Below are positions 1-31,780 of a stretch of DNA of 32,000 nucleotides, in pieces; positions within the stretch are counted from its first letter, which is position 1, and every line of letters begins with the position of its first letter. A program made the translations under genes and the position numbers. The DNA comes from Methanothermobacter thermautotrophicus str. Delta H (lineage in GTDB: Archaea; Methanobacteriota; Methanobacteria; Methanobacteriales; Methanothermobacteraceae): assembly GCF_000008645.1 (NCBI RefSeq), contig NC_000916.1:900001-932000 (forward strand). The letters run 5' to 3'. The notes beneath the pieces were generated by a model that made no database searches, had not been told where the DNA came from, and saw only the letters and a program-made list of their open reading frames with translations.

Positions 1-983
1 CCGGTAAGGGCGCCACCAGAACCCAGGCAAGGGCCTCGGCCATGATGGAGGCCTTTGAGAGGTATTCAGCAGAAAGAAAGCCCGAAGATGAAACATTCAC
101 AGCTCACCCAGAGGACTGTGACGGCCTTGACCCTGAGTCACTGATACTTCCAGGGTCCACTGATCTGAAATCTGAACTGGAGTGGATTAATGCAGAGAAC
201 CTCACCGGTGATGAGGAGGTCCCGGTACCTGCAAATGCTGTTTTTCATCCATACAACCCTCCGGAAGGCTGCATGAGTCTGTTCCGATCAAACACCAATG
301 GACTTGCATCAGGGAATGCAAGGGAGGAGGCCATATTCCATGGGCTGATGGAGGTGATTGAAAGGGATGCCTGGAGCCTCTTCGAGGCTAGGAGGGGTCC
401 CAAAGTGGAGGTTGACTGCTCAGGGACGGATAATGATATAATATCAGGACTCCTTGAGAAGTTCCATGCCGCTGGTGTGGAGGTGACCCTGGTTGACCTT
501 ACAGCAGACACCGGGGTTGCGACGGTGGCTGCGGTTGCAGATGACACCGTCCTGAGGGATCCGGCCCTCCTCACCATGGGCGTCGGGACCCACCTTGACC
601 CTGAAATTGCGGTTATAAGGGCCCTCACAGAGGTCGCCCAGAGCAGGGCCACCCAGATACATGGAACCCGTGAGGACACCGTCAGGGCCGAGTTCATGAG
701 ACGTGCCGGGTATGAGCGTATGAAGAGACTCAACAGGCACTGGTTCAGTGAACCGGAGGACACGATTACCCTGGATGAGATGGAGGACCTCTCAACAAGG
801 TCATTCAGGGGAGACCTTGAGATAACCCTCAGGAAACTGCGTGAATCCGGTCTAGAGGATGTTTTCTATGTTGACCTCACCCGTGATGTGGGGGTCCCTG
901 TCGTCAGGGTCATAGTTCCGGGCCTTGAGGTCTTCTCTGTTGACCCGGAACGTGTGGGGCGTCGCATCAGGTCCTCCATCTGA
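1..983 (+). CDS. ycaO: YcaO-family ATP-dependent amide-activating enzyme (McrA thioglycine-forming type). It is 5' partial: the reading frame is open to the window edge.
   Basis: The frame is open from position 3 ([21 protein letters not shown]). It carries the YcaO core signature [30 protein letters not shown] and is immediately followed by tfuA. Confidence 0.85.
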
Positions 984-1904: not shown

Positions 1905-2921
1905 ATGGATCTTGAATCAAAGGTTGAAAGGGTTAAGACGGCCCTCAGGGGTGAGAGGATCGCCGTTGGATTCTCGGGTGGTGCTGACAGCACAGCCCTT
2001 CTTGATATGGCCGCTGATGTTGCTGATACTGTGGTCGCCTTCACCGTGGATACCGGTGTGATGCCCCGTGGCTTCATTGAGGGGGCTTCAGGCATAGCCC
2101 GGGAGATTGGCGTGGAACATGTTGTCCTGGAGATGAACCTCCTCGAGAATGTGGAATTTGCGAAAAATGCTGCTGACCGGTGCTTTGTGTGTAAGAACAT
2201 CATATACAGTTCCATAATCAGAGAAGCTCATAACCGGGGCCTTGATGTGGTTGCAGACGGCACCACAGCCAGTGACATGTTCGAGGACCGCCCGGGGGTC
2301 CTTGTGAACCACCTTCTTGGAATAAGAACACCCCTCCTGGACGCAGGGATGAAGAGAAGTGATGTGATTGAATACCTCAGGTCCAGGGGGCTTAACTATC
2401 TGGAGGAAACCACCTGCCTTGCAACCAGGATCAGGACAGGTGAAGAAATCACACCCGAGAGGATAAACAGGATCTCCTATGCTGAAAGCCTCATCAGGAG
2501 CGTGTACGGTGATGGGAAGATCCGTGTCCGCCACGAAGGAGAATCCGCCATAATAGAGGTTGATGAACCAGAACGGCTCCTTGAGACACCCATCATAAGG
2601 CACCTGGATGATGAACTGAGGGCCGTTGGATTCAGAAGGGTCCTTCTTGACCTTACAGGGAGAAAGACCCCTGACGAGGCCATGATCTACAGGCCCTGCC
2701 GCGATGCTGAATCAAGGATAATGTTCGAGGTTAAACTGCCCTACAGCATAGACATTGCCAGGACCTGCAGGGAACTCATGGATAGGGGGCCCAGGTGTTC
2801 AGAGAAGATGGGGGTCATCATGCTGGAGGCCGGTGATGGGAATGTCACCATCTTCAGGAACGGGAAGATCGTTGCAAGGAGGGTCAGAGACCAGGAGGAA
2901 GGCAGAGGATGTCATCCTTGA
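1905..2921 (+). CDS. LarE-family PP-loop ATP-dependent sulfurtransferase (COG1606-like) with three Cys placed as in Fe-S-type LarE proteins, plus an extra C-terminal domain of about 85 aa.
   Basis: PP-loop motif VGFSGGADST. CxxC (DRCFVCKNIIYS) plus a third Cys (EETTCLATRIRTGEEIT) sit at the position of the LarE active-site Cys. The tail IRVRHEGESAIIEVDEPERL...LRAVGFRRVLLDLTG is colinear with Lactobacillus LarE as I recall it. Confidence 0.8.
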   Translation: MDLESKVERVKTALRGERIAVGFSGGADSTALLDMAADVADTVVAFTVDTGVMPRGFIEGASGIAREIGVEHVVLEMNLLENVEFAKNAADRCFVCKNIIYSSIIREAHNRGLDVVADGTTASDMFEDRPGVLVNHLLGIRTPLLDAGMKRSDVIEYLRSRGLNYLEETTCLATRIRTGEEITPERINRISYAESLIRSVYGDGKIRVRHEGESAIIEVDEPERLLETPIIRHLDDELRAVGFRRVLLDLTGRKTPDEAMIYRPCRDAESRIMFEVKLPYSIDIARTCRELMDRGPRCSEKMGVIMLEAGDGNVTIFRNGKIVARRVRDQEEGRGCHP

Positions 2922-3429: not shown

Positions 3430-4267
3430 TAAGAGCGTTTATAAGGTCATTGGCCCTTGCAAGCCCGACGAGGTCTCCTTCATAGTCTATGATGGGTATC
3501 TGCTCAATTTTCCTCCTCTTCATCTTCTGTGCGCAGGAGGTTACGGTTGTTGAGGTGGTTGCCGTCACGATATCTGTGGTGGCGACGTCCCTGGCCTCCT
3601 TGTCAGGGAATTTCAGCTGATTCTTTATGACGTAGAGGACGTTCTTGCTGTCCCATGACCACCTGTCACCCTCTGTACCGACTGAGGTGTTGTGGACTGT
3701 GCTCTCTGAGACCACCTCACTCTCATTTATGAAGTCTGTCTCTGTGAGGACACCTGATAGTTTTCCTCTGTTGTTGAGGGTGAGGAGCACCTTTAACCTG
3801 AAGTACCGCATTATCTCAAAGGCCACGTTGAGTGGTGTCCTGTCCCAGGTGGTGGGGATGTTGCGTGTCATGTAATTTTCAACAGGTTCCTGGATGTCCA
3901 TCTCAGCGATGGCCCCTGCAACAAGGTCATAGCTTGTCACTATGCCCACAAGCCTGTCCCCATCCACAACAGGGACCCTGCGGATGTTGTTCTCAAGCAT
4001 CCGCTCTGCAGCCACCCTGACGTCATCATCAGGGGATACCGTGACAGGGTTTCTTGTCATAATGAGGACTATCTGCTCCTCATCAGGGTTTTCAACAAGA
4101 TCAGATCTTGTTATTATGCCTACGAGTTCCTCCGTTCCCTTCTTAACCACAGGAAGCCCTGAAACATTCTTCTTTCTCATGAGTTCAAGGGCTGTTGCCC
4201 TGTTCCCTGGTACAGTAACGTAGTGTATGTTCTCTGACATTATCTCCTTTACAAGCATGACCAACAC
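3413..4267 (-). CDS. CBS-domain protein with four CBS repeats (two Bateman modules).
   Basis: There are repeated CBS patterns: [33 protein letters not shown]...[24 protein letters not shown]...[21 protein letters not shown], and two more copies. Confidence 0.85.
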
Positions 4268-4294
4268 CAGAAGTAATTCGTAAAAAAAGGTTTT

Positions 4295-4726
4295 TCAGTG
4301 AACCACGAGGACCGGGCAGCCTGCGGATCTTACAACCTTCTCGGCCACGCTTCCCAGAAGGAATCTGTCAAGACCGTGTTTGCCTGAGGTACCCATTACC
4401 ACGAGGTCCACGCCCTCCTTCTCCACTGTCCTGAGTATGGCCTCTGCAGGTGAACCCTCATCGGTCCTCACTGTTAACTTTATATCCGCCCCTGACTCCT
4501 CAACGAGCTTTTTAACAGCCTCCAGGGACCTTGAGGCCTCCTCCTCGAGCATCTCCCGCAATCTTATTATAAGGTCGTCGGCTGGTAGACCCACCAGTGA
4601 AGACGTCTCCATAACTGTTAAAGCAATTATTTCAGCTCCGCTTTCCCTGGCAATCCATATTGCATGTTCAGCAGCCTTATTGGCCTGTTTTGAGCCGTCG
4701 GTCGGGAGCAGGATTTTACTGTACAT
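4295..4726 (-). CDS. Universal stress protein (UspA family).
   Basis: KILLPTDGS...AEIIALTV...[35 protein letters not shown] is the classical Usp ATP-binding tail (G-x2-G-x9-GS...PVLVV). Confidence 0.9.
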
Positions 4727-4730
4727 AGCC

Positions 4731-5885
4731 TCACCTCTTAACTAGTTTACCTTTTATTATTAAATATATTATATTTTTCGATTCGGTCCGGTTTATGATT
4801 GAGAGGTATGGATCACCTGAAAGCTTCTCCACGAGGATAAGGTCCGCAGGGAAGCCCTCCTCGATGACACCTGTGCCTGTGAAGGCTGATGTGTTGGATG
4901 TGGCCATCCTCAGCACCTCCACCGGTGGGAAGTATCTGCGTGCGCATCCCCTTGTGACCTTGAGTGTGTACTCCATCTCACGCAGCATATCAGGGGAGTT
5001 GAACATCAGGTTGTCTGTGCCAAGGAGAAGGTTGATGCCCAGCTCATGCATCCTCCTGATGGGGGGTATGCCGGATGAGAGCGCCCCGTTGGACCTGGGA
5101 CAGAGGACCACCGACGCACCACTCTCCCTCACAAGTTTAAGGTCCTCCCTGACAGGGTTTGTGAGGTGTACAAGGAGTTTGAATCCTGCGTTGAGGGCCC
5201 TTTCAACCTCACTCATGCCTGTATCCTCAAGGGACCTTCTCTGTGACTCCCTGTGCTCTGCAACGTGTATGGATGCTATCTTTCCTGCCCTTTCACATTC
5301 CTCAACGATTATGGATGCTGTTTCATCCGTTATCTCACCCATACCGCTGGGGGCGAATCCGTCTGAAACCCTCAGGACCCCCCTGACCCGCCGGCGGATC
5401 TCAGCCCGGGATGCCTCCTGATCAAAGACCACGGGATCCCTTCCAAGTATAATCCCTGAGATGGGGAGGTCACCGATGGCCTCCCTCAGGAGTTCAACCC
5501 CCTCAGGGCCGCCCTCCCTGTAGTCAATAAATGATCCGATCCCATGGGTGATCATGTCCCTGGCCGAGTTTCTCATGGCCTCCATGAGCATCCCTGGTGG
5601 TGACGATTCCAGTATCCTGTGTTTGAGGCCATTAGGGGGTCTCACTATATCCTCAAGTGGTCTTCCATCGCCCACATCAAGTGCAACTGAGTCGCCGATG
5701 TGAACATGTGAATTTACAAGTGCAGGGCATACCATTAGCTTTGAAGCGTCGATTCTCTCTCCTGATGGGGCCCGTTCATCTGTTATCTCCTTTATGATTC
5801 CATCCTCAATCACCAGGTTCTTCCTCTGGGGTGTGAGCTCGGGGCCCCTCAGGATGGTTCCATTTTCAACCACAAGCATATTCAT
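4731..5885 (-). CDS. Metal-dependent amidohydrolase, chlorohydrolase/aminohydrolase (TRZ/ATZ-like) superfamily. Substrate unknown.
   Basis: N-terminal beta-sandwich followed by the HxH metal motif ([13 protein letters not shown]). Later His/Asp motifs (SIHVAEH, LVHLT, GTDNLM) are typical of the amidohydrolase TIM barrel. Confidence 0.8.
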
Positions 5886-6007
5886 TATATAGGTGCGGGA
5901 TCTTCTTTAATGCTTTCTGGATACTGTGGTGATTTTCCAGAAAAGAAGAGAAAAAATCGCACATAACTCCTCAGATTTTCCAGTTCAAAAAGGAAAGTGG
6001 GGTACTG

Positions 6008-7345
6008 CTAAAACTTCCTGAGATTGTTCAGCTCAGACTTCTCAGCGACCCTGTTGTAGTAGTCCACCTTAACCGTGCCCCTGTAGTACCTGTAGTATAC
6101 CTTGAGTCTGGTGCTTGCACCCGGGTTGAGGGTCCCGGTGTAAACCTGCTTGTAGTTCCTTGTTGAGTATCTGCCGTACCAGACCCTTGTGTAGAAGTTC
6201 CTGGCGGCGGCTGTACCCTGATTCCTGATGTATATGTACAGTGTGCTACCTGATTTTCTGGTCCCCGTAACCACCAGGTCCGGTTTCGGGTTTCCAGCTG
6301 TTACTGTCTTCTTCTTAACTGATATGAGGCCATTGGAGTCTTTCGCTGTCAGTGAAACCGTGTAGTATCCCTCACGGGCATAGGTGTGTGTAACATTAGA
6401 ACCGGTGGCGGTTGAACCATCGCCAAAGTTCCAGGTAAGGGTGAGGTTGTCACCATCAGGGTCATATGAGGTTGAAGTGAATGCAAATGTTCTGATTGAT
6501 GTTGAGCCACAGTAGGCGTAGGTGAAGTCAGCAACAGGTTTGCTTCCTGTGAAGGTGGGCCTGCTCTTTGTCCTGTACCATTCCTCTGCAGCCGCATCAT
6601 CGTAGGGTGTTGTCTGATTAACCCTGGGAAATGTTCCGTTCCAGTCCCCGACGAAGGCCGCGTATCCATGATCGTTGCGCCACACCTCTGTTCCATTGTA
6701 CAGGGTGCTCTGATTTATAACCTCATAGTTCTGCTGGTTGGCCTCATAGAAGTTCCTGGCGCCGCTGAGGAAGTCATAGATTATCTCGGCACCATCCCAT
6801 GCAGTTGCATAGTAGTTGGCCCCTGCCCCCGTGAACATCCTTGCAAAGCTGTAAACCGTTTCAACGGGGTTTTTAACCTCATACTCCTCAACCCAGCCGG
6901 TTGAGAAGCATGCGTGAAGTAGAATTGCGGGTATGCCATCCTTGAAGGGAGCATAGAATGTGGTGCCGTTCACCATCATCATGTCACCGGCACTCCATAT
7001 GTACCCATCCCTTGCAACAAGGCCGAATGGTGGTGTGGCGTTACCTCCACGACCATCATAGTGACCCGCCATGTAGCCACCGTGTCCGGCGTAGATCACT
7101 GCATCTGCCCCATACATACCCTTCAGTATGTTCTTGACGGTTGCATTGTTCCTGTAGAGCTCAAGAACATGGTAACCCCTGTTTTTGAGGGTCGTTGCAA
7201 CCTTCTTTGCCTCATCATACATGTCAGGGCTATCGGAGAGGCTATCTGCTACTATGAGTATGTGGGCCTCTGCCACTGGAAATGTGATGACTGATGCGAT
7301 GATGAGTGCTGTGAGCATAAATCCTGATACCCTCATCGTATTCAC
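6008..7345 (-). CDS. Secreted or cell-surface protein: N-terminal signal/anchor, clan-CD (caspase/gingipain-like) His-Cys domain, PKD domain and C-terminal CARDB domain.
   Basis: Hydrophobic N-terminus MRVSGFMLTALIIASVITFPVAEA. A strand-then-His (ADAVIYAGHGG) and a strand-then-Cys (IPAILLHACFS) are arranged as in clan CD peptidases. PKD signature DPDGDNLTLTWNFGDGSTATGSNVTHTYAREGYYTVSLTAKDSNG. CARDB-like PDLVVTG...IRNQGTAAA...VDYYNRVAEKSELNN. Nine N-x-S/T sequons. Confidence 0.8.
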   Translation of the reverse strand: MNTMRVSGFMLTALIIASVITFPVAEAHILIVADSLSDSPDMYDEAKKVATTLKNRGYHVLELYRNNATVKNILKGMYGADAVIYAGHGGYMAGHYDGRGGNATPPFGLVARDGYIWSAGDMMMVNGTTFYAPFKDGIPAILLHACFSTGWVEEYEVKNPVETVYSFARMFTGAGANYYATAWDGAEIIYDFLSGARNFYEANQQNYEVINQSTLYNGTEVWRNDHGYAAFVGDWNGTFPRVNQTTPYDDAAAEEWYRTKSRPTFTGSKPVADFTYAYCGSTSIRTFAFTSTSYDPDGDNLTLTWNFGDGSTATGSNVTHTYAREGYYTVSLTAKDSNGLISVKKKTVTAGNPKPDLVVTGTRKSGSTLYIYIRNQGTAAARNFYTRVWYGRYSTRNYKQVYTGTLNPGASTRLKVYYRYYRGTVKVDYYNRVAEKSELNNLRKF

Positions 7346-7404
7346 CGATCAGCTCTATGGCTTCACATAAACTTAAACATATGATGGTATCTTGGTGCTC
7401 AGAC

Positions 7405-9891
7405 TCACATACCATGGTATTCATCAAGGGACTTCACTGTTATTTTTCCCATGCGAACTGCTTCAATGGCATTAAGGGCCGCCCTGGCCCCTGCAAGTGT
7501 CGTGACGTAGGGTATTCCAAGTTCAACGGCCATCCTCCTTATGAGGTAGCCGTCATCGGCTGACTGCTTCCCGGATGGTGTGTTTATTATGAGACCAACT
7601 TCACCATCCAGAATTGCGTCCCTGATGTTTGGTGACCCCTGGCTCACCTTCCTCACGACCTCTATATCTGCAATGTCACTGACTGCCCTGGCTGTTCCCC
7701 GGGTTGCCATGATCCTGAAGCCGAGTTCATCGGCCTTTTTAACGATATCGGCTATCTTATCCTTGTCCTGGTCCCTGACACTTATGAAGACCTTCCCCTC
7801 ATTGAGGAGGTCCATGCTGGCTGAGAGCTGGGACTTGTAGTAGGCTATGCCAAAGTTTTCATCTATTCCCATGGCCTCGCCTGTTGATTTCATCTCAGGG
7901 CCCAGGACCGAATCTGCTCCAGGGAGCTTTATGAATGGGAATACAGACTCCTTCACAGCGACGTGTTCTATATCCTTCTCCTCTGTGAGACCAAGGTCCC
8001 TGAGCTTCGCGCCCATCATGAGCCTTGCAGCCATCTTGGCAAGGGGGACCCCTGTCGCCTTGCTGACAAAGGGTACTGTACGGCTTGCCCTCGGGTTTGC
8101 CTCGAGTATGTAGACTGATGGATCTGAGTCTGGCTTTACAGCGTACTGTATGTTTATGAGGCCCACCACCTCAAGTTCAAGGGCCAGTTTCCTTGTGTAC
8201 TCCTTTATGGTATCAATTATATCCTCCGGGATGCTCTGTGGTGGTATCACGCACGCTGAATCCCCTGAGTGGACTCCTGCCTCCTCGATGTGCTCCATTA
8301 TACCTCCTATGTAGACGTCGGTGCCGTCGCAGAGTGCATCCACGTCGACCTCTATGGCATCCTCAAGGAACTTGTCCACCAGTATGGGGTGTTCGGGGGA
8401 TACACGGACAGCCTCCCTCATGTACTCCTCAAGCTCCACATCATCATAGACTATCTCCATCGCCCTTCCACCCAGGACATAGGAGGGCCTTACGAGTACA
8501 GGGTAGCCTATGCGTTCAGCCACGGCCCTTGCATCCTCAAAGGACTTTGCGATTCCGTAGGGTGCCTGGGGTATTCCCAGTTTATTCAGCACCTCAGTGA
8601 ATCTTTCACGGTCCTCTACCCTGTCTATGCTCTCATGTGGTGTTCCGAGTATCCTCACACCAGCCTCTGCCAGGGGGACCGCCAGGTTTATGGATGTCTG
8701 GCCACCGAACTGGACAACAACACCCTCTGGTTTCTCCTTCTCGATGATGGCGAGGACGTCCTCAAGGGTGAGGGGCTCGAAGTAGAGCTTATCTGAGATG
8801 TCATAATCTGTACTCACTGTCTCCGGGTTGTTGTTGACCATTATGGTCTCATATCCATCCTCAGTGAGGGCCATGGCTGCGTGGACGCAGCAGTAGTCGA
8901 ACTCTATCCCCTGACCTATCCTTATTGGACCTGAACCTATGATGAGGACCTTTCTACGGTCTGATACCTCCACCTCATCTTCAAGGTCATAGCAACCATA
9001 GTAGTAGGGTGTCCTGGCCTCAAACTCGGCTGCGCATGTATCAACCATCTTGTAGACAGGTTTTATGTTGTTCTCAAGCCTCAGGGCCCTGATACTGGAT
9101 TCATCCATACCTGTGAGGGATGCTAATCTCGAATCTGAAAAGCCCATCCGCTTGGCCTTGAGCAGTATGCGGGGGTCCTCCAGTGATTCCCTGGTGATGG
9201 ATGATTCAAATTCAGCTATGTTGCTTATCTTCTGGAGGAAGAAGGGGTCTATCTGTGTCAGGCCATGTATCTCCTCTATGCTCATACCATCCCTGAGGGC
9301 GGTGTAGACCTGAAAGAGCCTCTGGTCCGTTGGATTCTCAAGGTCCGCCCTGGTGTATGGTGTCTCAGTGAATCCGTCTGCACCGATGTCCAGGGACCTT
9401 ATGGCCTTGTTGAGGGACTCCTCAAGGGTTCTCCCTATGGCCATGACCTCCCCCGTGGACTTCATCTGAACCCCTATCTCCCTGCTTATCCCCTTGAACT
9501 TGTCAAAGGGCCAGCGGGGGATCTTTGTGACCACGTAATCTATTGTGGGCTCGAAGGACGCTGGTGTCTCCTTGGTGATGTCGTTCTGTATCTCATCGAG
9601 GGTCATGCCGACGGCTATCTTGGCCGCTATCTTGGCTATGGGGTAACCCGTGGCCTTGGATGCCAGCGCACTGCTCCTGCTGACCCTCGGGTTCACCTCT
9701 ATGACCTTGTATTCGCCGGTCTCCGGGTGGACAGCGAACTGTATGTTACAGCCACCCTCTATCTTGAGGGCCCTTATGATCTTTATGGCCGCATCCCTCA
9801 GCCTCTGGTTGTCCTCGTCGCTGAGGGTCTGGGCAGGTGCAACCACCACGCTTTCACCTGTGTGTATGCCCATGGGGTCGATGTTCTCCAT
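7405..9891 (-). CDS. carB: Carbamoyl-phosphate synthase large subunit, residues downstream of the frame break (rest of the first ATP-grasp domain, oligomerisation domain, second ATP-grasp domain, MGS-like domain).
   Basis: MENIDPMGIHTGESVVVAPAQTLSD...NPRVSRSSALASKATGYPIAKIAAK is colinear with E. coli CarB from about residue 235 onward. A second ATP-grasp half follows ([23 protein letters not shown]...). Confidence 0.95.
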   Translation of the reverse strand: MENIDPMGIHTGESVVVAPAQTLSDEDNQRLRDAAIKIIRALKIEGGCNIQFAVHPETGEYKVIEVNPRVSRSSALASKATGYPIAKIAAKIAVGMTLDEIQNDITKETPASFEPTIDYVVTKIPRWPFDKFKGISREIGVQMKSTGEVMAIGRTLEESLNKAIRSLDIGADGFTETPYTRADLENPTDQRLFQVYTALRDGMSIEEIHGLTQIDPFFLQKISNIAEFESSITRESLEDPRILLKAKRMGFSDSRLASLTGMDESSIRALRLENNIKPVYKMVDTCAAEFEARTPYYYGCYDLEDEVEVSDRRKVLIIGSGPIRIGQGIEFDYCCVHAAMALTEDGYETIMVNNNPETVSTDYDISDKLYFEPLTLEDVLAIIEKEKPEGVVVQFGGQTSINLAVPLAEAGVRILGTPHESIDRVEDRERFTEVLNKLGIPQAPYGIAKSFEDARAVAERIGYPVLVRPSYVLGGRAMEIVYDDVELEEYMREAVRVSPEHPILVDKFLEDAIEVDVDALCDGTDVYIGGIMEHIEEAGVHSGDSACVIPPQSIPEDIIDTIKEYTRKLALELEVVGLINIQYAVKPDSDPSVYILEANPRASRTVPFVSKATGVPLAKMAARLMMGAKLRDLGLTEEKDIEHVAVKESVFPFIKLPGADSVLGPEMKSTGEAMGIDENFGIAYYKSQLSASMDLLNEGKVFISVRDQDKDKIADIVKKADELGFRIMATRGTARAVSDIADIEVVRKVSQGSPNIRDAILDGEVGLIINTPSGKQSADDGYLIRRMAVELGIPYVTTLAGARAALNAIEAVRMGKITVKSLDEYHGM

Positions 9892-9892
9892 G

Positions 9893-10585
9893 TTACAGAA
9901 CGATTATACAGGTGTCATTCCGGTCCCTCATAACCTCGTACTCGAATTCCTTCCAGCCCAGGACTGACTGGTCAATTAGGACCTGGTTGATGAAGCTCAT
10001 CTCGAGGCCCCTTGTTGCTATCTCAATGAGTTCGTCCCGGCTGTGGGCCACCCCGCCCCCTGTTCCCCCCAGGGTGAAGGCGGGCCTCACGATCACAGGG
10101 TAGCCTATCTCCTCAACCGCCTCAAGGGCCTCCTCAACTGAACTGACGGCCCTGGCTGCTGGTACTGGTTCGTTGAGCTTCTTCATGAAGCTGTCAAAGA
10201 GGTCGCGGTCCTCCACGTTCCTTATGGTTTCAATTGATGAACCTATAACACGGACTCCCTCCAGGGCGCCCATCTCTGCAAGGCCCGTTGCAACGTTGAG
10301 GCCTGTCTGGCCGCCCATCGTTGGGAGTACTGCGTCAGGTTTCTCCTTCTGGATTATCTTGGCAACGATTTCGGGTGTGAGGGGTTCGACGTAGACCCTG
10401 TCAGCCATTTCCATGTCGGTCTGTATGGTTGCAGGGTTCGAGTTCACAAGTACTGTCTCTATTCCCTCCTCCCTGAGTGATTTACATGCCTGAGAGCCAG
10501 AGTAGTCGAATTCAGCTGCCTGCCCTATCTGTATAGGGCCAGAACCTATGATAAGTACCTTATTGATGCTTTCATCCCGCGGCAT
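9893..10585 (-). CDS. carB: Carbamoyl-phosphate synthase large subunit, N-terminal ~230 aa fragment ending at a frame break.
   Basis: [41 protein letters not shown]...[17 protein letters not shown], then L-stop. The canonical CarB motif CIIVC(N/S)(M/I)EN is split exactly here. I chose the start at 10585 (MPRDESINK) over the longer ORF start at 10639. Confidence 0.9.
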
Positions 10586-10616
10586 TTTATCCCCATTCCT
10601 CTCATCTAATATTCCC

Positions 10617-11687
10617 TTAAAACATCCACAAGCGGTCAAAGATGTTCACCGTGTCATGTGGCCCTGGACCCGCTTCAGGGTGATACTGGACACTGAACAC
10701 CGGGAGTTCCCTGTGCTCTATACCCTCCGGTGTTCCGTCGTTGAGGTTCAGCTGTGTTATCTCTATGTCGGTGCCCTTCACTGAATCAGGGTCAACCGTG
10801 AATCCATGGTTCTGGGAGGTTATTGAAACCGTCCCACTCCTCAGGTCCTTCACAGGCTGATTTACGCCCCTGTGACCAAACTTCATCTTGTATATGCGGG
10901 CCCCGAAGGCCAGTGCGATTATCTGCTGTCCGAGGCATATCCCGAATATGGGCAGACGTTCGGATAGTGCTTTAACTGTGTCTATGGCATCCCTCACACG
11001 TGTGGGGTCCCCTGGTCCGCTTGATATGAGGAGACCGTCGGGCTCGTAATCCATGATCTCGGCGGGTGATGTGGTGTAGGGTACGATCACGACCCCCAGA
11101 TCCTTCTCAAGGAGGGCATCTATGCTGTTCCTCTTGATCCCGCAGTCAACTATAACAACCCTCCCTGATGCATCCTCATTCAGGATTACAGGTTCCCTTA
11201 CACAAACCATATCCACAAGGTCGATTTCTGTTATGTCTGGCTGTTTCACTGCCATTTCAAGCAGTTCATCATCATCAATCTCCTCGGTTGCAAGGGCACC
11301 CTTCATGGTACCCTTATCCCTTATCTTTATTGTCAGGGCGCGTGTATCCACTCCAGCTATCCCAGGAATCCCATATTCCTCCAGGAACTCCGGGAGAGTC
11401 TTTTCTGACAGGCTGTGTGAGGGTGCAGGGCACATTTCCCTGACGATGAGACCCTCGGCCTTTATCCCATCTGACTGGTACCACTCCTCGGTGACGCCGT
11501 AATTGCCCTGTAAGGGGTAGGTTGGCATCAGTATCTGGCCCCTGTATGATGGATCTGTGAGGGACTCAACATATCCTGTCATACCCGTTGCAAAGACAAC
11601 TTCCCCTGTTTTCACAGTTTCAGATCCGAATGCTTCTCCTCTGATTATGGTACCGTCTTCCAAGGCGAGTTTTGCTTCCTTAAACAT
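10617..11687 (-). CDS. carA: Carbamoyl-phosphate synthase small (glutamine amidotransferase) subunit.
   Basis: [21 protein letters not shown]..., the GATase triad context [10 protein letters not shown], and [15 protein letters not shown] chose the start at 11687, which follows a GGTGGTGA ribosome-binding site, rather than ORF position 11747. Confidence 0.95.
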
Positions 11688-11721
11688 TTCACCACCATGA
11701 TCCTGATTTCCTTTGATTGGA

Positions 11722-12192
11722 TTAGACTGGTCGATATTCATGGCCATGGAGTGAATCAGGCTGGAGATCCATCCTCATGACCACAGCATCCTCTCCATCC
11801 TCATAATAGTTCTCTAATATCTTCTCCTCACTGAAGCCAAGGGCCCGGTAGAATTTTATGGCCCCTTTATTCCTTGCCCTTACCTCCAGTTTAATATTTT
11901 TAATGTGAAATTTTTCAAATATACTTATGGCTGTCATGACAAGTGCCGCCCCAACACCCCTCCTGCGGTAATCTTTATCAACTGCAAGTGAGATAATATG
12001 ACCCTCATCCTCAAAACGGATCCAGAATATTATGAATCCAACGACCTTCCCATCCTCCTGGGCCACAAGGAAGCCTGCTCCAAGGTTGTAGATGTCCCTG
12101 AGGAGGTGGGCGGGGTATGGGTCCATGAAGGAGTCCCTTTCAATCTTAAGGACCACCTTAAGGTCCTGTGGTCTGAACTCTCTTATTATCAT
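11722..12192 (-). CDS. rimI: GNAT N-acetyltransferase, RimI/Ard1-like (ribosomal-protein-alanine / N-terminal acetyltransferase).
   Basis: GNAT motif A: [19 protein letters not shown]...[11 protein letters not shown]. Size and layout are typical of archaeal RimI/Ard1. Confidence 0.85.
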
Positions 12193-26130: not shown

Positions 26131-27339
26131 TCATTTTAGATCTTTGCAGTTAAAGAGCTTTGCGCACATGCTCAGAAATTCCTCATCGCCCCTCTCAGCC
26201 GCCTGCCGGATGCTGATGGCTATATCATGGAATATCTTATCCACGATGGACCTGCTGAGGGCCTCAATAACCCCCTCAGGGTCAGAGGAGTTCATGATCT
26301 TATTGAGGGCCCTTTCTGCCTCGCGCCTGCGGAGTGACTCCATATTGCCCCTCACCTCTGCAAGGAGGGGTTCAACCTCCATGTGTTTGAGGGACCTCAG
26401 GAGGAGCTTAAGTTCACCTTCAACAATTCTTTCAGCCTCCCTCGCCTCTGCCTCCCTCCTTCTCCGGTTCTCTTCCGCCACTCCCCTCAGATCATCGATT
26501 GTGAAGAGTCTGATGCCAAGTTCTCTTACCGACTCCTCTATGTCACGTGGGTTGGCTATGTCCACCATGACCACAGCGGATCTCCTCTCCGGAGGTATTG
26601 CGTCCCTGACACGTTCACGGGTCAGAATGTAGTGGGGTGAGCCTGTGGCACTGATAACAACGTCTGCGTCCCTGAGGGCCCTGTTGAGCCTGTCAAAGTG
26701 TATAGCATCTCCACCGAGTTCACATGCCAGCTGGTAGGCCCTCTCATAGGTCCTGTTGGCCACCATTATGGCGCTGAGGTGCTTCTCTGCAAGTGCCCTT
26801 GCAACGAGGGTCCCCATCTTACCTGCCCCTATGGCAAGGACCTTCCTGCACTTCAGATCTCCGTGTATGGATTCTGCAAGGTCAACCGCTGCTGACCCTA
26901 TGGAAACAGAGCCCCTGTTTATCTGGGTCTTCCTCCTGACGGTCTGCCCCACATGGACTGCCTTGGTGAACACCATGTCCAGGACCGGGCCGCAGGTCCC
27001 TTCACGCAGGGCCTGAACCCTTGCAGCCTTTATCTGGCCGAGTATCTGGTCCTCCCCTATTATCATGGATTCAAGACCGGATGCGAGTCTCAGGATATGT
27101 CTGAGGGCATCCTCATCCCCTTCAACCGTGAATCCATCGAACTCAAAGCCCGGGGGTATCTCCTGGACTGAAAGGTAGTATTCGATGCGGTTGCAGGTCC
27201 TTATTGGGACCTTCTCCATCACAGTTCCACTGGACTCAAGTTCAGCCACAATGGCCTCCATCCTCTCATGTGAGGACTCCATGGTCTTCACATCGGATGT
27301 CTTGTGGTCCAGCCTTATGTTGAGAATCACCTGCAACAC
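26131..27339 (-). CDS. hemA: Glutamyl-tRNA reductase.
   Basis: LDHKTSDV, catalytic-Cys context RTCNRIEYY, NADPH site AIGAGKMG. GTG start overlaps the end of sirC by 13 nt. Confidence 0.95.
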   Translation of the reverse strand: MLQVILNIRLDHKTSDVKTMESSHERMEAIVAELESSGTVMEKVPIRTCNRIEYYLSVQEIPPGFEFDGFTVEGDEDALRHILRLASGLESMIIGEDQILGQIKAARVQALREGTCGPVLDMVFTKAVHVGQTVRRKTQINRGSVSIGSAAVDLAESIHGDLKCRKVLAIGAGKMGTLVARALAEKHLSAIMVANRTYERAYQLACELGGDAIHFDRLNRALRDADVVISATGSPHYILTRERVRDAIPPERRSAVVMVDIANPRDIEESVRELGIRLFTIDDLRGVAEENRRRREAEAREAERIVEGELKLLLRSLKHMEVEPLLAEVRGNMESLRRREAERALNKIMNSSDPEGVIEALSRSIVDKIFHDIAISIRQAAERGDEEFLSMCAKLFNCKDLK

Positions 27340-27947
27340 CCCAGCCGTTCCCTGATTATGATTTCAGCCCTTTCAACTGCCCCATCAAGGTCTCCCCCTT
27401 CAATCATCTCCCTCACCCCGGGGTCCTCTGAAATTTCATAGAGTATCCTGCGCCTCTTCCTGTGATCACCGGCCTCACCCATTAGAATCCTCCTTGCCCT
27501 GTCCTGGACCTCGATCATGAGGAGGTCCTGGGGGCTGATGGCCTCCTGGATCCTCTCCCTCAGATACCTTGCCATGAGGGGGCTCTTTGTCCCCGTGAAG
27601 ATCGATACTGAAACCTCTCCAATGTTGAAGGTGGCCGGGACCACGACGTTACCCCTTGAGGGATCATCTGCCCTGTTTATCAGTTTACCGCCTGCAAGTT
27701 CAGTCACCCTTTCATTCAGGTCTCCGTCAGGACTTGCTGCCACTATGAGGTCGGCCCACTCCACCCAGTACTCAAGGTCGTCCTCCCTGGCAGGAATGGT
27801 TCCCTCAATTTCTGATGTGCCGATAACCGCGACCTCTGCTCCTGCTTTAAGGAATCTTTCAGCCCTCCTCCTCCCCACCGTACCGGAGCCAACGATGAGG
27901 ACCCTTCTACCATCCATGTCTATGTAGATGGGTGTGAGGGACATCAT
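27327..27947 (-). CDS. sirC: Precorrin-2 dehydrogenase / sirohydrochlorin-forming enzyme (CysG N-terminal-domain-like, SirC).
   Basis: RRVLIVGSGTVGRRRAERFLKAGAEVAVIG is a Rossmann motif. The size of about 206 aa is typical of SirC/Met8-like proteins. Confidence 0.85.
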   Translation of the reverse strand: MMSLTPIYIDMDGRRVLIVGSGTVGRRRAERFLKAGAEVAVIGTSEIEGTIPAREDDLEYWVEWADLIVAASPDGDLNERVTELAGGKLINRADDPSRGNVVVPATFNIGEVSVSIFTGTKSPLMARYLRERIQEAISPQDLLMIEVQDRARRILMGEAGDHRKRRRILYEISEDPGVREMIEGGDLDGAVERAEIIIRERLGCCR

Positions 27948-27955
27948 ATCATCCG

Positions 27956-28423
27956 TCAGAGGGACTTCATTCTCAGTATCTTCATTGCCGTCCTGAGGTC
28001 GTTGCCCGCATCCTCAAGGGCCTCCCTGGCCTCCTCGGGAGTTACGTCGAAGGCATCTGCCAGGGCCTTCACGCTCTCTGTGTCAGGTTCTGATGTGCCG
28101 ACAAGTTCCTCGGAGAGTTTCTTCTTGAGTTCCATGTACTCCTCGGTGCTCATGTTTATCCTCTTCATTGCCATGTCCCTCAGGGGGCATGGTTTTGATG
28201 GCTTGCAGCACCATACCAGGGATCCGAAGCATGTCCCCTGGCCCTCCCCGAGCCTTGTTCTCTTTGCAAATGACTCCTTGATTTCAATGTAATCCTGGGG
28301 TGTGAGCCCTGCCTCCTCGAGGGCTATCATTATGGGGCAGGGTTTAACCGGTGGGCAGCAGAAGGTGAGTGCCCTCTTATCACCACCCCTGCAAACATGG
28401 GATGGTGCATCGCTCCATACCAA
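27956..28423 (-). CDS. Methanogenesis-marker-9 domain protein (Cys-rich, duplicated [F/W]CCxxxKPCP motif) with a C-terminal UBA/NAC-like helical tail.
   Basis: [23 protein letters not shown] and [19 protein letters not shown] give eight Cys in total. C-terminus [25 protein letters not shown]. The family assignment is from memory of the TIGRFAMs/COG4008 description. Confidence 0.8.
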
Positions 28424-28504
28424 ACAAAGTCCTCCTTTATTAACTATATTTACTATTAATAAAACATCATGGTTAACAGATACTTTAATGGCTTTAATTA
28501 CAGT

Positions 28505-28545
28505 TTAATAAATAAATAAATTGTGGTTCCCCTGATTAAGAGGGG
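28505..28545 (-). terminator. Candidate terminator or attenuator after atwA: a short hairpin followed by a T-rich tract on the minus strand.
   Basis: The stem cccct/agggg (28529-28533 / 28541-28545, 7-nt loop) begins 5 nt after the atwA stop. It is followed on the transcript by TTTATTTATTTATT. Confidence 0.35.
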
Positions 28546-28550
28546 TCTAT

Positions 28551-30143
28551 TTACTCCCTGAACATCTTACTCTTCTCATCGGGTGTGAGGTCACCGACGA
28601 TTGACTCGGGGTCACCTGTCTTTAGAATCCTGCCGCCCCTCATGAGGGATGCCCTGTCACATACATCCAGTACAAAGTCCATGTCATGGGATATTATGAG
28701 GAATGTCTGATTCAGTTCCTCCCTTGCCTTGAGGATTGAATCTGTGACCTGCACCCTGGTTATGGGGTCCATTGTACCTGTCGGCTCGTCAAGTATTATT
28801 ATGCGTGGCTCCTTGATGAGGACCTGGGCAAGGGCGACCCTGTGCCTCTCACCACCTGAAAGTTCATCCGGATATTTGTTCAGGATGCTCTCGGCGTATT
28901 TATCGTCGAAGCCAACCGTCTTCAGGACGTATACAGCCCTCATCTTTGCGAATTCATCGGGCAGCTCCAGGCTTATGGCCTCTGTGAGGTTGCCCAGAAC
29001 ATCCCTGTGGGGGTAGAGGCTGTACTCCTGGTGCAGTATTCCAAGGTAGGGTGTTACACGGCCACGGCCGAGGGGTCCCTTCTCGGTCATGTCAATCCAT
29101 TCATCACCGAGCCTCACACAGACCTTCCCGCTGCTGGGCTCTGTGATACCTATTATTATCCTGGATAGGGTTGTCTTCCCGGCACCGCTTAGGCCAACAA
29201 CACCAAAGATCTCGCCCTCATAGACCGTGAGGTCAACCCCATCAACTGCCTTAACAACACCCCTGTCAATGGAGTAGTAGTGTTTCTTGACATCAACCAT
29301 CTTTATTATGGGGTTTTCCTGCTCGAATTCCTTGGCCTTTTCAGGGGCGGGTACCTGTTCCATGAACCTGGCCACCACTGTGTCCGGGTCTCCCTCCTCA
29401 ACAATTTCGCCCTTCTCGATCCATATGGCGTAGTCTGAGAGGTCGCTCATGACCTCTGGCCAGTGGGAGGTTATGATCATTGTGATGCCCTTGTCCTTGA
29501 CACCCTCAAGGAGTGCGTCGTGTATGAGTTCCGCTGTCTGGGGGTCCAGTGTACCTGTTGGTTCATCTGCCAGGAAGAGCATGGGTTCCTTTGCAAGCTG
29601 TCTTGCGAGTACGACCCTCTGTTTTTCACCACCACTCAGGTCCCTTGCAATGTGGGTTATCCTGTGGCCCATCTGAGTCATCTCAAGGAGCTCCAGGGCC
29701 CGGTAGAGGGCTGCCTCATATTCAAGCTCGGGCATTGACTTTATGACGTTATCGATTACGGTGTCATCCTCATAAAGGGCGAAGGTCCTCTGCAGCATGA
29801 TGGCTATCCTTCTCCTCACAGCGGCGAATATCTTCTTGTCACAGTTCCAGAAATCGACCTCCTCCAGTGCAAAGCTTGATCCGCAGGAGCAGTTCCTGCC
29901 ATCAAAGGATGGTGGCTCCACACGAAGGCATTCAGGACATATGGCGACGTTGTAGATCACCCGACCGCTGTCTGGTCGGTACTCCTTCATACCACGGAGC
30001 ATGTTGATGAGAACTGATTTTCCGGCTCCACTCCTTCCGAGTATACCCAGAACCTTGCCCTCATCGATTTCAACACTGATATCCCTTAGAACCTCAACAC
30101 CCTTAAACTTCTTTGTGACATTTTCCAGTTTTATGAAAGACAT
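28551..30143 (-). CDS. atwA: Methyl-coenzyme M reductase system component A2 (double ABC-type ATPase).
   Basis: Two Walker A sites ([18 protein letters not shown]), two ABC signatures ([16 protein letters not shown]), and a Cys-rich insert [22 protein letters not shown]. The start at 30143 (MSFIKLENV) follows GAGGGTGAGGA. Confidence 0.9.
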
Positions 30144-30236
30144 GTCCTCACCCTCAGTTACCAGAATCAACATTGTCAGTAAACATGAATCTGTATATTC
30201 TTTTGATGAAGCGACTATTAAAATTTTCCTAAATTT

Positions 30237-30965
30237 TTAGTCTGAATTAAATTTCAGTTCCCTGAGGTTGAAACCGAGTCTGCCGGATATTGCCGCCCTT
30301 GCAACCGACACAGCATCAGCCCCTGCTGCAAGCATTGCCCTCGCGGATTCAATGTCCCTCACAGAATTGTTACCTATGAGGATGGAGTCCCCCTTCACCT
30401 CTGAAACAAGGGATACGAGTTCCAGGTCAGCCCTGTCCTCCCCGGGTTTCATTGCATCGAGGTGGATGTAGTCGACCCCCAGGTCAGCCAGGACCCCTGC
30501 CACCCCGACGGTGTCAGCTCCAGGTACGTTTCCACGTATCTTGACTGAAACCTCAGATCTCGCCTTCCCTGTAACCTCCGCTGTGAAGTCCTCCAGGAAT
30601 TCAGGATCCATGAGCATTGACTGGCCTGCCCCTATTTCTGTTATCTCCGGCTGTCTGCAGTGTGCATTGATCTCAACAACGTCAACAGACTCAATGGAGG
30701 AGATTTCCACTATTCTTTCAGGTTCAAGGGCTCTGATGTTCACTGAGACCATTACATCGAACCTCTCCTTTATCCTTGAGGCCTCATGATTGATGATTGA
30801 TCTCAGTTCAGAACAGTCAAAATCAAATTCAGGTCTGCCCCTCTGAGCTATGAGCCTGCCGGCCCTGGAGGTCTCTCTATCCGCATTGTAGCCTCCAAGG
30901 GTGACCATGTCGAATCCATAGGGGATAAGTTTCAGGCAGAATTCCGCGTCACTTATTCCTGCCAT
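30237..30965 (-). CDS. Dus/NifR3-family FMN-type TIM-barrel protein (tRNA-dihydrouridine-synthase-like, function unassigned here).
   Basis: It is colinear with Dus motifs: (LAP)MAGISD vs APMAGITD, VEINAHCRQPE...GAGQSMLMDPEF vs DINMGCPAKK...AGSALLQYP, VSVKIRG vs VTLKIRTG, and ILIGNNSVRDIESARAMLAAGADAVSVARAA vs VIANGDI...GADALMIGRAA. Confidence 0.75.
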   Translation of the reverse strand: MAGISDAEFCLKLIPYGFDMVTLGGYNADRETSRAGRLIAQRGRPEFDFDCSELRSIINHEASRIKERFDVMVSVNIRALEPERIVEISSIESVDVVEINAHCRQPEITEIGAGQSMLMDPEFLEDFTAEVTGKARSEVSVKIRGNVPGADTVGVAGVLADLGVDYIHLDAMKPGEDRADLELVSLVSEVKGDSILIGNNSVRDIESARAMLAAGADAVSVARAAISGRLGFNLRELKFNSD

Positions 30966-31030: not shown

Positions 31031-31780
31031 CTATTCCTTCATCACATGGACAAGGTCATAGGTGAAGCCGCCCCTTATTTCCTCAAGGGCAAGGTCAGCC
31101 AGGTTGGCCGCCTTCTCGGCTGTCGGGGCCTTTCCTATACCCGCCTTAAGGGCCACGTTTATCTCATCATCTATCTCATTGATTATCCTCAGGAGCCCCT
31201 GAGGTTCAAGACCATTGCAGGGGGACATGAAGTTATCTCCGCCTATGAAGAAGAGGAGGGCGCCCTCCTTTATCAGCTTCTTCATCAGAAAATGCTGAAC
31301 CCTGTTCACGATGAAGGATGTGTCATAGGCAGGTACAATGTCGGTCATCGTCTCTGTGATGCCATTGATATCGATGTGAGCTATCTGCACGTAGCCCTCA
31401 TCCACAAGGCCGTCTATGGCAAGTACCTCCTTCCTCTCCTCTGACTGGGCGCCTCCATGGCTCTGAAGAGCCCTTGAAGCGTTCCTCTGAGCATCGTAGG
31501 GTGTCTCAGCAGCGCCCACACCCATGCTCACGGTTATTGGGTACCTGTTGCCTATGGATTTCTGTATCCTGCGGTGGTCCTCAAGGTCCATTCCATTGGT
31601 GACTGCAAGCATGTTATCGAATCTTGTGAAGAACACCAGTCCCTGGCGGGCAGCAAACTGGCGCTGAAGATCAGCGTAGAGCTCTGCCTGCATTATCTGG
31701 AGATCCGCCTCATTACGGGGGGTTGGTGTGACTGTCCATGGCCCATAATTGTCTATTTGAATTAAGGTCATCTGTATCAT
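31031..31780 (-). CDS. gch3: GTP cyclohydrolase III (forms FAPy for riboflavin/F420 biosynthesis).
   Basis: [28 protein letters not shown]...[15 protein letters not shown] closely resembles the MJ0145-type GCH III N-terminus as I recall it. Confidence 0.9.

Follow-up and report, generated by a model that had tools for sequence, protein, structure and literature searches.

What do the two uncharacterized genes on either side of atwA do for a methanogen? We analyzed a stretch of 32,000 nucleotides from Methanothermobacter thermautotrophicus str. Delta H (NC_000916.1, positions 900,001 to 932,000; hereafter the window, with coordinates counted from its first letter), in which atwA, the gene for methyl-coenzyme M reductase (MCR) component A2, stands between a gene for a short flavin mononucleotide (FMN)-type TIM barrel and one for the cysteine-rich protein known as methanogenesis marker 9. 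A preliminary description had proposed that the three act together in activating MCR. Our results indicate that the barrel and marker 9 are almost certainly parts of a single enzyme and that their linkage to atwA is restricted to the Methanobacteriaceae. The pair more likely makes a cofactor than activates the methane-forming enzyme, because outside this family the neighbors of the two genes are methanopterin-cofactor genes instead of atwA. The region concerned spans MTH1012-1018, and family matches were judged against curated hidden Markov model cut-offs. The two proteins are encoded as follows:

30237 to 30965, minus strand: short FMN-type TIM barrel of 242 amino acids, MTH1016 (TIGR00736, 389 bits against 218.7)
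27956 to 28423, minus strand: marker 9, MTH1014 (TIGR03277, 195.3 bits against 96.2, amino acids 2–109)
28097 to 28420, minus strand: Cys-rich domain of marker 9, amino acids 2–109 of MTH1014, internally duplicated (TIGR03277)
27971 to 28081, minus strand: UBA-like three-helix tail of marker 9, amino acids ~115–151 (PF24767, Foldseek)

The barrel and its cysteine-rich partner

According to the preliminary description, some species have marker 9 in fusion with a NifR3/Dus-type barrel, and this proved correct: P0131, P0134, P0135, and P0138 carry both domains. Among 1.84 billion cluster representatives we found 101 marker-9 clusters, including proteins of 322 to 391 amino acids with a C-terminal marker-9 domain, at whose N terminus NCBIfam places a TIGR00736-like barrel. 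The fusion profile had 1335 relatives. The best 120 of these were nearly all of fused length (365–394 amino acids), and the taxa named among them were Methanolobus, Methanomethylovorans, Methanosarcinaceae, Methanoregula, and Halobacteriota metagenome-assembled genomes (MAGs). Going by these sequences, the fusion genuinely exists in Methanosarcinales, Methanomicrobiales, and a Halobacteriota lineage. One fused protein labeled "Bathyarchaeia" (P0313) groups with the Halobacteriota forms and looks like a binning or labeling error in a public MAG.

An AlphaFold (AF2) model of a fused Methanolobus protein (P0238) reached a predicted local distance difference test score (pLDDT) of 94.4 and a predicted template-modeling score of 0.92, and a rigid packing of the two domains is therefore predicted. 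Because the two are fused in several orders and modeled as a rigid two-domain protein, we treat the barrel and marker 9 as one functional unit; this part of the earlier proposal, that the two act together, is well backed. Foldseek neighbors of the fused homolog were Dus, class 1B dihydroorotate dehydrogenase (DHODH-1B), the FMN domain of dihydropyrimidine dehydrogenase (DPD), and human DHODH, with E values of 5e-10 to 1e-9 and template-modeling (TM) scores of 0.52 to 0.55 for 5ksw, 1ep2, and 1gth.

The barrel belongs to TIGR00736, the "MJ0144 family RNA dihydrouridine synthase-like". Its match to Pfam Dus was partial (36 bits, profile positions 55–218 of 311), and its scores were 36 bits for DusB (TIGR00737, cut-off 293) and 27 bits for the PyrD family (cut-off 270). 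The protein stops after the barrel and thus lacks the C-terminal helical domain of Dus, while the Dus catalytic core is retained. Kasprzak et al. 2012 (PMC3674756) described an "archaeal Dus" signature in which NxHC[KR] replaces NxGCP, KxR is kept, and HxD replaces HxR. The window barrel shows the full signature (EINAHCRQ, VKIRG, and IHLDA), and its NAHC, KIR, and H(L)D align with NAGC/NMGC, KTR, and H of TM0096 and DusB.

The marker 9 of the window is 100% identical to a Methanothermobacter protein. The preliminary description had also given eight invariant cysteines and two [WFY]CCxxxKPCP motifs; both motifs are present, and the cysteines (C11, C22, C23, C29, C65, C72, C73, and C79) are invariant in an alignment of 14 diverse members. 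The Cys-rich domain consists of two repeats of the form C-x10-[FWY]CC-x3-K-x-C(P), each with a helix pair, and its halves align with each other (hhalign probability 98.7%, E 3e-16), indicative of an internal duplication. An AF2 model based on 66 sequences (pLDDT 90) is all-helical. No match to the Cys-rich core was found by sequence search of the PDB or by Foldseek fold search, and no CCG, ferredoxin, or zinc-finger family was matched in Pfam at E≤5. The C-terminal tail resembles UBA, NAC, and EF-Ts N-terminal domains in Foldseek (root-mean-square deviation 0.8–2.8 Å); PF24767 matches it in a close homolog (P0006) and weakly in the window protein. This tail was seen only in the standalone marker 9 of Methanobacteriaceae and is missing from the fused forms, and it may be a docking module that stands in for the covalent link to the barrel.

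Neither partner has an experimentally assigned function, as the preliminary description stated: our literature search found no functional study of marker 9, TIGR03277, TIGR00736, MJ0144, or PF24767. The marker-9 family corresponds to COG4008, and MTH1014 has been tabulated as a methanogen-specific "predicted metal-binding transcription factor" (Kaster et al. 2011, PMC3087415).

Gene neighborhoods within and beyond the Methanobacteriaceae

Lineages other than the Methanobacteriaceae were sampled by 12 exact-protein look-ups and by one metagenome scan that yielded 80 Methanoregula-like loci. The 12 loci comprised fusions from a Methanolobus-type genome, Methanoregula, Halobacteriota (two loci), Methanimicrococcus, and one lineage without an assigned taxon, together with standalone forms on four contigs (P0127 and P0140 on ones too short for useful context) and an Asgard homolog on two. 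Downstream of the fused gene come first a CitG-like gene and then a DUF447 gene, with spacings of 0 to 15 nt or overlaps. We found this order in the Methanolobus-type, Methanoregula, and Halobacteriota loci and in the lineage without a taxon. In the Methanoregula-like metagenome, the succession was present in all 63 loci with at least 1.5 kb of downstream sequence, and likewise in 55 of 55 with at least 2.2 kb. DmrX, the archaeal FMN-dependent dihydromethanopterin reductase (PMC6193120), comes after the fusion cluster in three loci (TIGR02700, 329 bits against 251), a dihydropteroate synthase (DHPS)-like gene lies downstream in two (TIGR00284, 300 bits against 257); in four, the opposite strand carries a gene for a PHP phosphoesterase. 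In at least four lineages, the fused form is linked to genes with a known or suspected part in tetrahydromethanopterin (H4MPT) synthesis (DmrX, DHPS-like, CitG-like, and DUF447); the split genes of the Methanobacteriaceae are not. An orf19-orf20-afpA island is retained among the H4MPT genes of methanotrophs (PMC3615186). Our literature search on DUF447 or CitG in connection with methanopterin returned nothing usable. Methanimicrococcus was considered as a natural case of H4MPT loss and dropped; it is uninformative in this respect because the literature shows that H4MPT synthesis is retained.

Two further kinds of cofactor genes recur beside the pair. The gene cofD lies directly upstream of the barrel in the Methanobacteriaceae and of the fusion in the Halobacteriota lineage. 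Tetrapyrrole genes adjoin marker 9 in two distant lineages, as sirC-hemA in the Methanobacteriaceae and as a cfb cluster in the Methanoregula-like loci. The latter consists of CbiX-type cfbA, cfbE, cfbD, and cfbB and is divergent from the fusion-CitG-DUF447 operon (for example, at 4217–8280 of locus L083), with which it often shares the intergenic region. In the two Halobacteriota loci (L084 and L085, 5378–7597), a UbiD-UbiX-LpdD trio (prenyl-FMN decarboxylase) stands upstream of cofD on the opposite strand, adjoining a flavoprotein-rich cluster.

Within the window itself, the preliminary description had listed seven co-directional minus-strand genes, with the barrel and marker 9 as separate genes on either side of atwA. 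All seven were recovered at the same coordinates, with family scores above the curated cut-offs. Besides the two described above, the features are:

31777 to >32000, minus strand: 3′ end of cofD, MTH1018, F420 biosynthesis (C-terminal part of TIGR01819, profile positions 241–299 of 301)
31031 to 31780, minus strand: gch3, GTP cyclohydrolase III/IIa, riboflavin/F420 precursor (PF05165, 431 bits; NF002587, 378 bits)
28551 to 30143, minus strand: atwA, MCR component A2, double ABC ATPase, MTH1015 (TIGR03269, 967 bits against 517)
28424 to 28550, minus strand: intergenic region between atwA and marker 9 (sequence reading and hairpin scan)
27327 to 27947, minus strand: sirC, precorrin-2 dehydrogenase type (cysG_Nterm TIGR01470, 78 bits against 62; PF13241)
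26131 to 27339, minus strand: hemA, glutamyl-tRNA reductase, MTH1012 (TIGR01035, 367 bits)

The junctions, when recomputed, agreed exactly with those given before: cofD and gch3 overlap by 4 nt, gaps of 65 nt (gch3 to barrel), 93 nt (barrel to atwA), 127 nt (atwA to marker 9), and 8 nt (marker 9 to sirC) follow, and sirC and hemA overlap by 13 nt. The 93-nt gap is counted from the ATG at 30143, which we took as the start of atwA because the A2 model begins there; the longest open reading frame (ORF), to 30173, would leave 63 nt. The window A2 aligns over its full length (673 bits, residues 3–528) with A2 as solved in the M. maripaludis activation complex (8s7v_K). Kaster et al. 2011 (PMC3087415) list hemA as MTH1012, atwA as MTH1015, and cofD as MTH1018, and atwA MTH1015 is one of two to three Methanothermobacter paralogs (PMC3087415). 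In M. marburgensis, marker 9 is MTBMA_c13960, atwA c13970, and cofD c14000, with the barrel encoded between the last two. The 127-nt spacer between atwA and marker 9 contains a hairpin (28529–28545), followed by a T-rich tract, an AT-rich promoter-like stretch, AGGAGG, and a TTG start. Another Methanothermobacter species conserves the hairpin, the T-tract, the TAAATATA box, and the Shine-Dalgarno site. Scanning for sigma-70 promoters does not suit archaea and was used for hairpins only.

A profile scan of contigs with a diverse marker-9 profile gave 80 best loci, all from Methanobacteriaceae and representing these at the species level (Methanothermobacter, Methanobacterium, and Methanobrevibacter). 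The order cofD-gch3-barrel-atwA-marker 9-sirC-hemA was kept in every locus with enough flanking sequence (~66 loci), and hence the arrangement in the window is not due to chance. The gap from atwA to marker 9 has a median of 5 nt (≤30 nt in 41 of 71), shorter than in the window, and the medians are 0 nt from marker 9 to sirC and 40 nt from sirC to hemA. The gaps around the barrel are wider, with medians of 116 nt from gch3 (≤30 nt in 7 of 66) and 140 nt to atwA (≤30 nt in 1 of 67), so that the barrel stands apart from the atwA-marker 9-sirC-hemA core. In several Methanobrevibacter loci (L065, L070, L073, L077, and L079), the atwA-marker 9 spacer measures 0.6 to 1.3 kb, suggesting an inserted gene. 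One contig labeled "Bacteroidaceae bacterium" (L076) carries marker 9-sirC-hemA of the Methanobrevibacter type, likely a binning or labeling error.

The block sits in a longer co-directional array of mixed function (MreB, RNase HII, ExbBD, PurO, cofE, cofD … hemA), and its opposite-strand neighbors (an AAA ATPase, an endonuclease-IV-like protein, and GAPDH) are syntenic as well. Because this array is long and functionally mixed, synteny across the family is weak evidence of shared function. In a related locus (L001, 650–6632), the array reaches at least 6 kb further upstream and includes genes for an MreB-like actin, RNase HII, an ExbB/ExbD-like pair, PurO, cofE, and cofD; MreB and ExbBD are notable in themselves in an archaeon.

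In the other lineages, atwA was found within 8 to 10 kb on either side of marker 9 or the fusion in none of 92 loci (the 12 look-ups and the 80 Methanoregula-like loci). Standalone marker 9 in other lineages has a VTT-domain protein and glutamyl-tRNA synthetase (GluRS) as its neighbors. Papers on the MCR activation complex list A2, McrC, Mmp3, Mmp7, Mmp17, and DUF2098, and the Methanosarcina activation operon, validated by reverse transcription-PCR (RT-PCR), combines A2 with Mmp5, 6, 17, 7, 3, and 15. We found no mention of marker 9 or the Dus-like barrel in the papers on this complex or on this operon. According to a 2025 paper in Nature, physiological activation of MCR needs further, unidentified proteins. 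The three-way module proposed earlier therefore divides: the partnership of barrel and marker 9 is borne out by the fusion and the model, and the membership of A2 is not, given its lack of linkage in these 92 loci and the absence of the pair from the complex. The same holds for linkage outside this lineage, where barrel and marker 9 are fused in several orders and linkage to atwA did not recur in the loci sampled. In the explanation that we tentatively favor below, the position on either side of atwA is Methanobacteriaceae gene order passed on by descent, and a shared mechanism with A2 is not indicated.

Homologs of marker 9 also occur beyond the methanogens. All members above the TIGR03277 cut-off with an assignable taxon are methanogens; P0140 and P0142 (107 bits) are without an assignable lineage. 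The divergent standalone profile retrieved 1063 proteins, and the named ones among the best 120 are all from Asgard archaea (Promethearchaeota/Lokiarchaeota and Hod-, Thor-, Sigyn-, Hermod-, and Helarchaeota). These homologs (P0392–P0509) are ~150 amino acids long, have all eight cysteines, and match TIGR03277 end to end with 70 to 83 bits against 96.2. Since such full-length homologs, scoring below the cut-off, are spread widely among Asgard archaea, the majority of which have no MCR, the term "methanogenesis marker" is partly a misnomer. In one Promethearchaeota locus (L092), Ftr, an H4MPT-dependent pathway enzyme, is encoded 5 kb from the marker-9 homolog (10001–10453), and no barrel or CitG gene was found near that homolog.

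Other relatives show further architectures. In proteins of 210 to 240 amino acids (P0153, P0155, P0161–P0170, P0183, P0185, P0192, and P0218), a marker-9-like domain at the N terminus is joined to a C-terminal ribbon-helix-helix (RHH) DNA-binding domain of the CopG/aCcr1-like kind; these proteins resemble regulators that sense metal or redox state. An intein with a LAGLIDADG endonuclease interrupts one homolog (P0182, 663 amino acids). Three giant proteins of 1448 to 1749 amino acids (P0171, P0189, and P0195) contain an internal marker-9-like domain, accompanied by Methyltransf_28, ARMT1-like, GlnD-UTase, or M54 peptidase domains. The domain superfamily is not tied to MCR, because it has members in Asgard archaea and in RHH-fused, intein-bearing, and giant multidomain proteins.

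Elsewhere in the window, a YcaO-family gene lies at the start (42–983, plus strand), of the kind implicated in McrA thioglycine formation, and ~0.9 kb past it is a gene for a 338-amino acid protein with a weak QueC/PP-loop match (1905–2921, plus strand). Downstream of carA (10617–11747), the large subunit of carbamoyl-phosphate synthase is split into two adjoining ORFs of 248 and 828 amino acids; these carB ORFs occupy 9893–10639 and 7405–9891, respectively, on the minus strand.

Candidate roles of the pair

We tentatively favor the explanation that the FMN barrel and its Cys-rich partner form a reductase in tetrahydromethanopterin side-chain synthesis, although we put its probability below one half. 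In the mechanism that we infer, MTH1016 and MTH1014 would each contribute one half of a single oxidoreductase, which is split here and occurs as a fusion in class-II methanogens. The barrel would be an FMN-binding domain of the Dus/DHODH/DPD type that keeps the catalytic Cys and Lys, and marker 9 a duplicated Cys4+Cys4 helical domain docking on it. Most probably marker 9 would hold metal or Fe-S centers that hand electrons to the flavin; alternatively, it may shape the substrate site. The enzyme may act in the middle part of the pathway, where it would reduce the ribofuranosylaminobenzene moiety to the ribityl form. DUF447 would then serve as a second flavin or electron-input protein, the PHP phosphoesterase may dephosphorylate the product, the CitG-like enzyme may attach the α-ribosyl-phosphate, and DmrX would carry out the final reduction.

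Several observations count against this explanation. In the Methanobacteriaceae, CitG, DUF447, and DmrX were not found within 10 kb on either side of marker 9, which is packed with atwA and sirC-hemA instead of H4MPT genes. The roles of the CitG-like and DUF447 proteins are themselves putative, and NCBIfam assigns DUF447 to no family. We take orf19 and orf20 to be the counterparts of the DUF447 and CitG-like genes, which is an assumption on our part. Moreover, F430 (cfb) genes are divergent from the fusion in 66 of the 80 Methanoregula-like loci, and marker 9 above the cut-off is catalogued as methanogen-specific, though H4MPT also occurs in non-methanogens.

Some of these points are what an MCR- or F430-centered explanation would draw on, in which the barrel and marker 9 would provide electrons or thiol/metal chemistry for A2-dependent activation of Ni(II) to Ni(I), or act in F430 synthesis or insertion. 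We consider this unlikely. It would fit the atwA-marker 9-sirC-hemA block of all Methanobacteriaceae loci with its median gaps of 5 and 0 nt, the divergent cfbB-D-E-A genes upstream of the fusion in those 66 loci, a distance of only 1.8 kb between the fusion and mcrBDCGA in Methanimicrococcus, the listing of marker 9 as a methanogen-specific COG, and the report that more, unidentified proteins are needed for physiological activation. However, neither protein is part of the purified and solved activation complex or of the RT-PCR-validated operon, linkage to atwA was seen in 0 of 92 loci of other lineages, full-length homologs occur in Asgard archaea that mostly lack MCR, the block is one section of a long array of genes with mixed functions, and the median gap from barrel to atwA is 140 nt. 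The earlier suggestion of a flavin plus metal/thiol redox input or chaperone for MCR activation or F430 handling is thus weakened by the family-specific linkage to A2, the Asgard homologs, and the absence from the complex. In one form of it, which we regard as improbable, marker 9 would be a new duplicated Cys4 metal or Fe-S fold that together with the barrel constitutes the missing low-potential electron input or thiol/metal chaperone for Ni(I) activation of MCR or F430 maturation; if true, this would explain both the atwA-marker 9-sirC-hemA operon of the Methanobacteriaceae and the cfb-adjacent fusion of the Methanoregulaceae. Gene order inherited without any common function with the window neighbors, marker 9 being a generic metal/redox-sensing or adaptor domain reused with varied partners, is rather unlikely as well. 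The standalone Asgard forms, the RHH-fused, intein-interrupted, and giant relatives, the unrelated VTT-domain and GluRS neighbors of standalone marker 9, and the synteny of the whole region across the Methanobacteriaceae, unrelated genes included, all speak for it. Yet the fusion with its conserved downstream operon represents at least one specific and recurrent partnership, and the spacing of 0 to 5 nt along atwA-marker 9-sirC is held across genera.

The family name of the barrel suggests a true RNA dihydrouridine synthase, with marker 9 as a Zn-binding module for RNA recognition in place of the Dus helical domain. Such a replacement would have a precedent in the CCCH fingers and the double-stranded RNA-binding domain of eukaryotic Dus3 and Dus2. 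It would agree with the classification as archaeal Dus, the conserved catalytic Cys and Lys, the location of the helical marker 9 C-terminal to the barrel where the Dus helical domain sits, the COG name "metal-binding transcription factor", the relatives fused to RHH DNA-binding domains, the resemblance of the UBA-like tail to NAC and EF-Ts domains, and the presence of dihydrouridine (D) in Methanococcoides burtonii tRNA. We nonetheless judge it quite improbable. Thermophiles retain the gene (Methanothermobacter does, and M. jannaschii MJ0144 gave the family its name), and D is rare or absent in thermophilic archaea according to the literature. Translational coupling to the CitG-like, DUF447, and DmrX genes would be unexpected for a tRNA enzyme. 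A paper on tRNA modification in M. maripaludis reports no D at D-loop position 17, but 2-thiocytidine, and uses the word "dihydrouridine" three times, in general statements only. In addition, the bacterial-type DusB of M. acetivorans could account for D in Methanosarcinales (PMC3674756).

A small probability also goes to a reductase of the F420/flavin pathway, which would be the missing archaeal enzyme producing the 2-phospholactyl moiety via phosphoenolpyruvate or dehydro-F420-0 reduction, or would act on the pyrimidine products of Gch3. The genes cofE-cofD-gch3 lie directly upstream of the barrel in all Methanobacteriaceae, and two related Halobacteriota loci (72–79% identical) have a bona fide cofD (TIGR01819, 319 bits) immediately upstream of the fusion. 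MJ0144 adjoins MJ0145 by locus number, and the latter is presumably Gch3. The barrels of DHODH, Dus, and DPD bind 2,4-dioxopyrimidines and reduce C=C bonds that are in conjugation with a carbonyl or carboxylate, and CofB was entered as unknown in PMC3087415. Against this role stand the wide gaps, with a median of 116 nt from gch3 to the barrel (≤30 nt in only 7 of 66 loci) and ~110 to 140 nt from cofD to the fusion, the lack of cofD near the fusion in the Methanolobus, Methanoregula, and Methanimicrococcus loci, and the many F420-making organisms without marker 9.

Relation to known systems

The genes and families discussed here are already catalogued, and the fusion is mentioned in the family description. 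Relative to the literature that we searched, four points are new: the near-invariant fusion-CitG-DUF447(-DmrX) operon, the confinement of linkage with atwA to a single family, the relatives in Asgard archaea and with RHH domains, and the duplicated marker-9 fold without a structural match. Few methanogen proteins that are nearly universal lack an assigned function; marker 9 (COG4008) and the archaeal Dus barrel are two of these, and their database names, "metal-binding transcription factor" and "RNA dihydrouridine synthase-like", lack experimental backing. The fusion-CitG-like-DUF447-DmrX operon gives concrete, testable candidates for the middle steps of methanopterin biosynthesis, a pathway that methane mitigation might target. 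An appealing but poorly grounded link to MCR activation is removed, and two long-standing "methanogenesis markers" gain a directly testable hypothesis; nothing is overturned.

Compared with the MCR activation machinery (A2, McrC, Mmp3/5/6/7/15/17, and DUF2098), the window contributes an atwA that is the ortholog of the solved A2. Marker 9 shares with this machinery the historical list of "methanogenesis markers", and by the literature neither it nor the barrel is a component of the complex or the operon. With H4MPT islands (DmrX/AfpA, orf19/orf20, and TIGR00284) the likeness lies in the class-II methanogens, where the fused gene heads a comparable cluster that parallels orf19-orf20-afpA; the Methanobacteriaceae have no such linkage. 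We know of no marker-9 or Dus-like gene in bacterial H4MPT islands.

DHODH-1B (PyrD plus PyrK) and DPD share the FMN-barrel fold class with the barrel (TM scores of 0.52–0.55) and may serve, by analogy, as a model of how the pair operates: beside the FMN barrel stands a Cys-ligated module for electron transfer, either separate or fused, to which DUF447 may be added. Neither PyrK nor the DPD ferredoxin domains are homologous to marker 9, and the similarity of the barrel to PyrD is far under the family cut-off (27 against 270 bits). In fold and sequence, the nearest neighbors of the barrel are Thermus thermophilus Dus, DusC, DusB, and TM0096. Common to Dus (PF01207) and the window barrel are the TIM-barrel FMN fold and the catalytic Cys (NAHC versus NxGCP), Lys (KIR), and His. 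The window protein differs from canonical Dus, to which it does not belong, in consisting of the barrel only (242 amino acids), without the C-terminal helical tRNA-binding domain, and in the motif changes G to H, P to R, and R to D. Instead, it is paired or fused with a Cys-rich domain, in operons with cofactor-synthesis genes.

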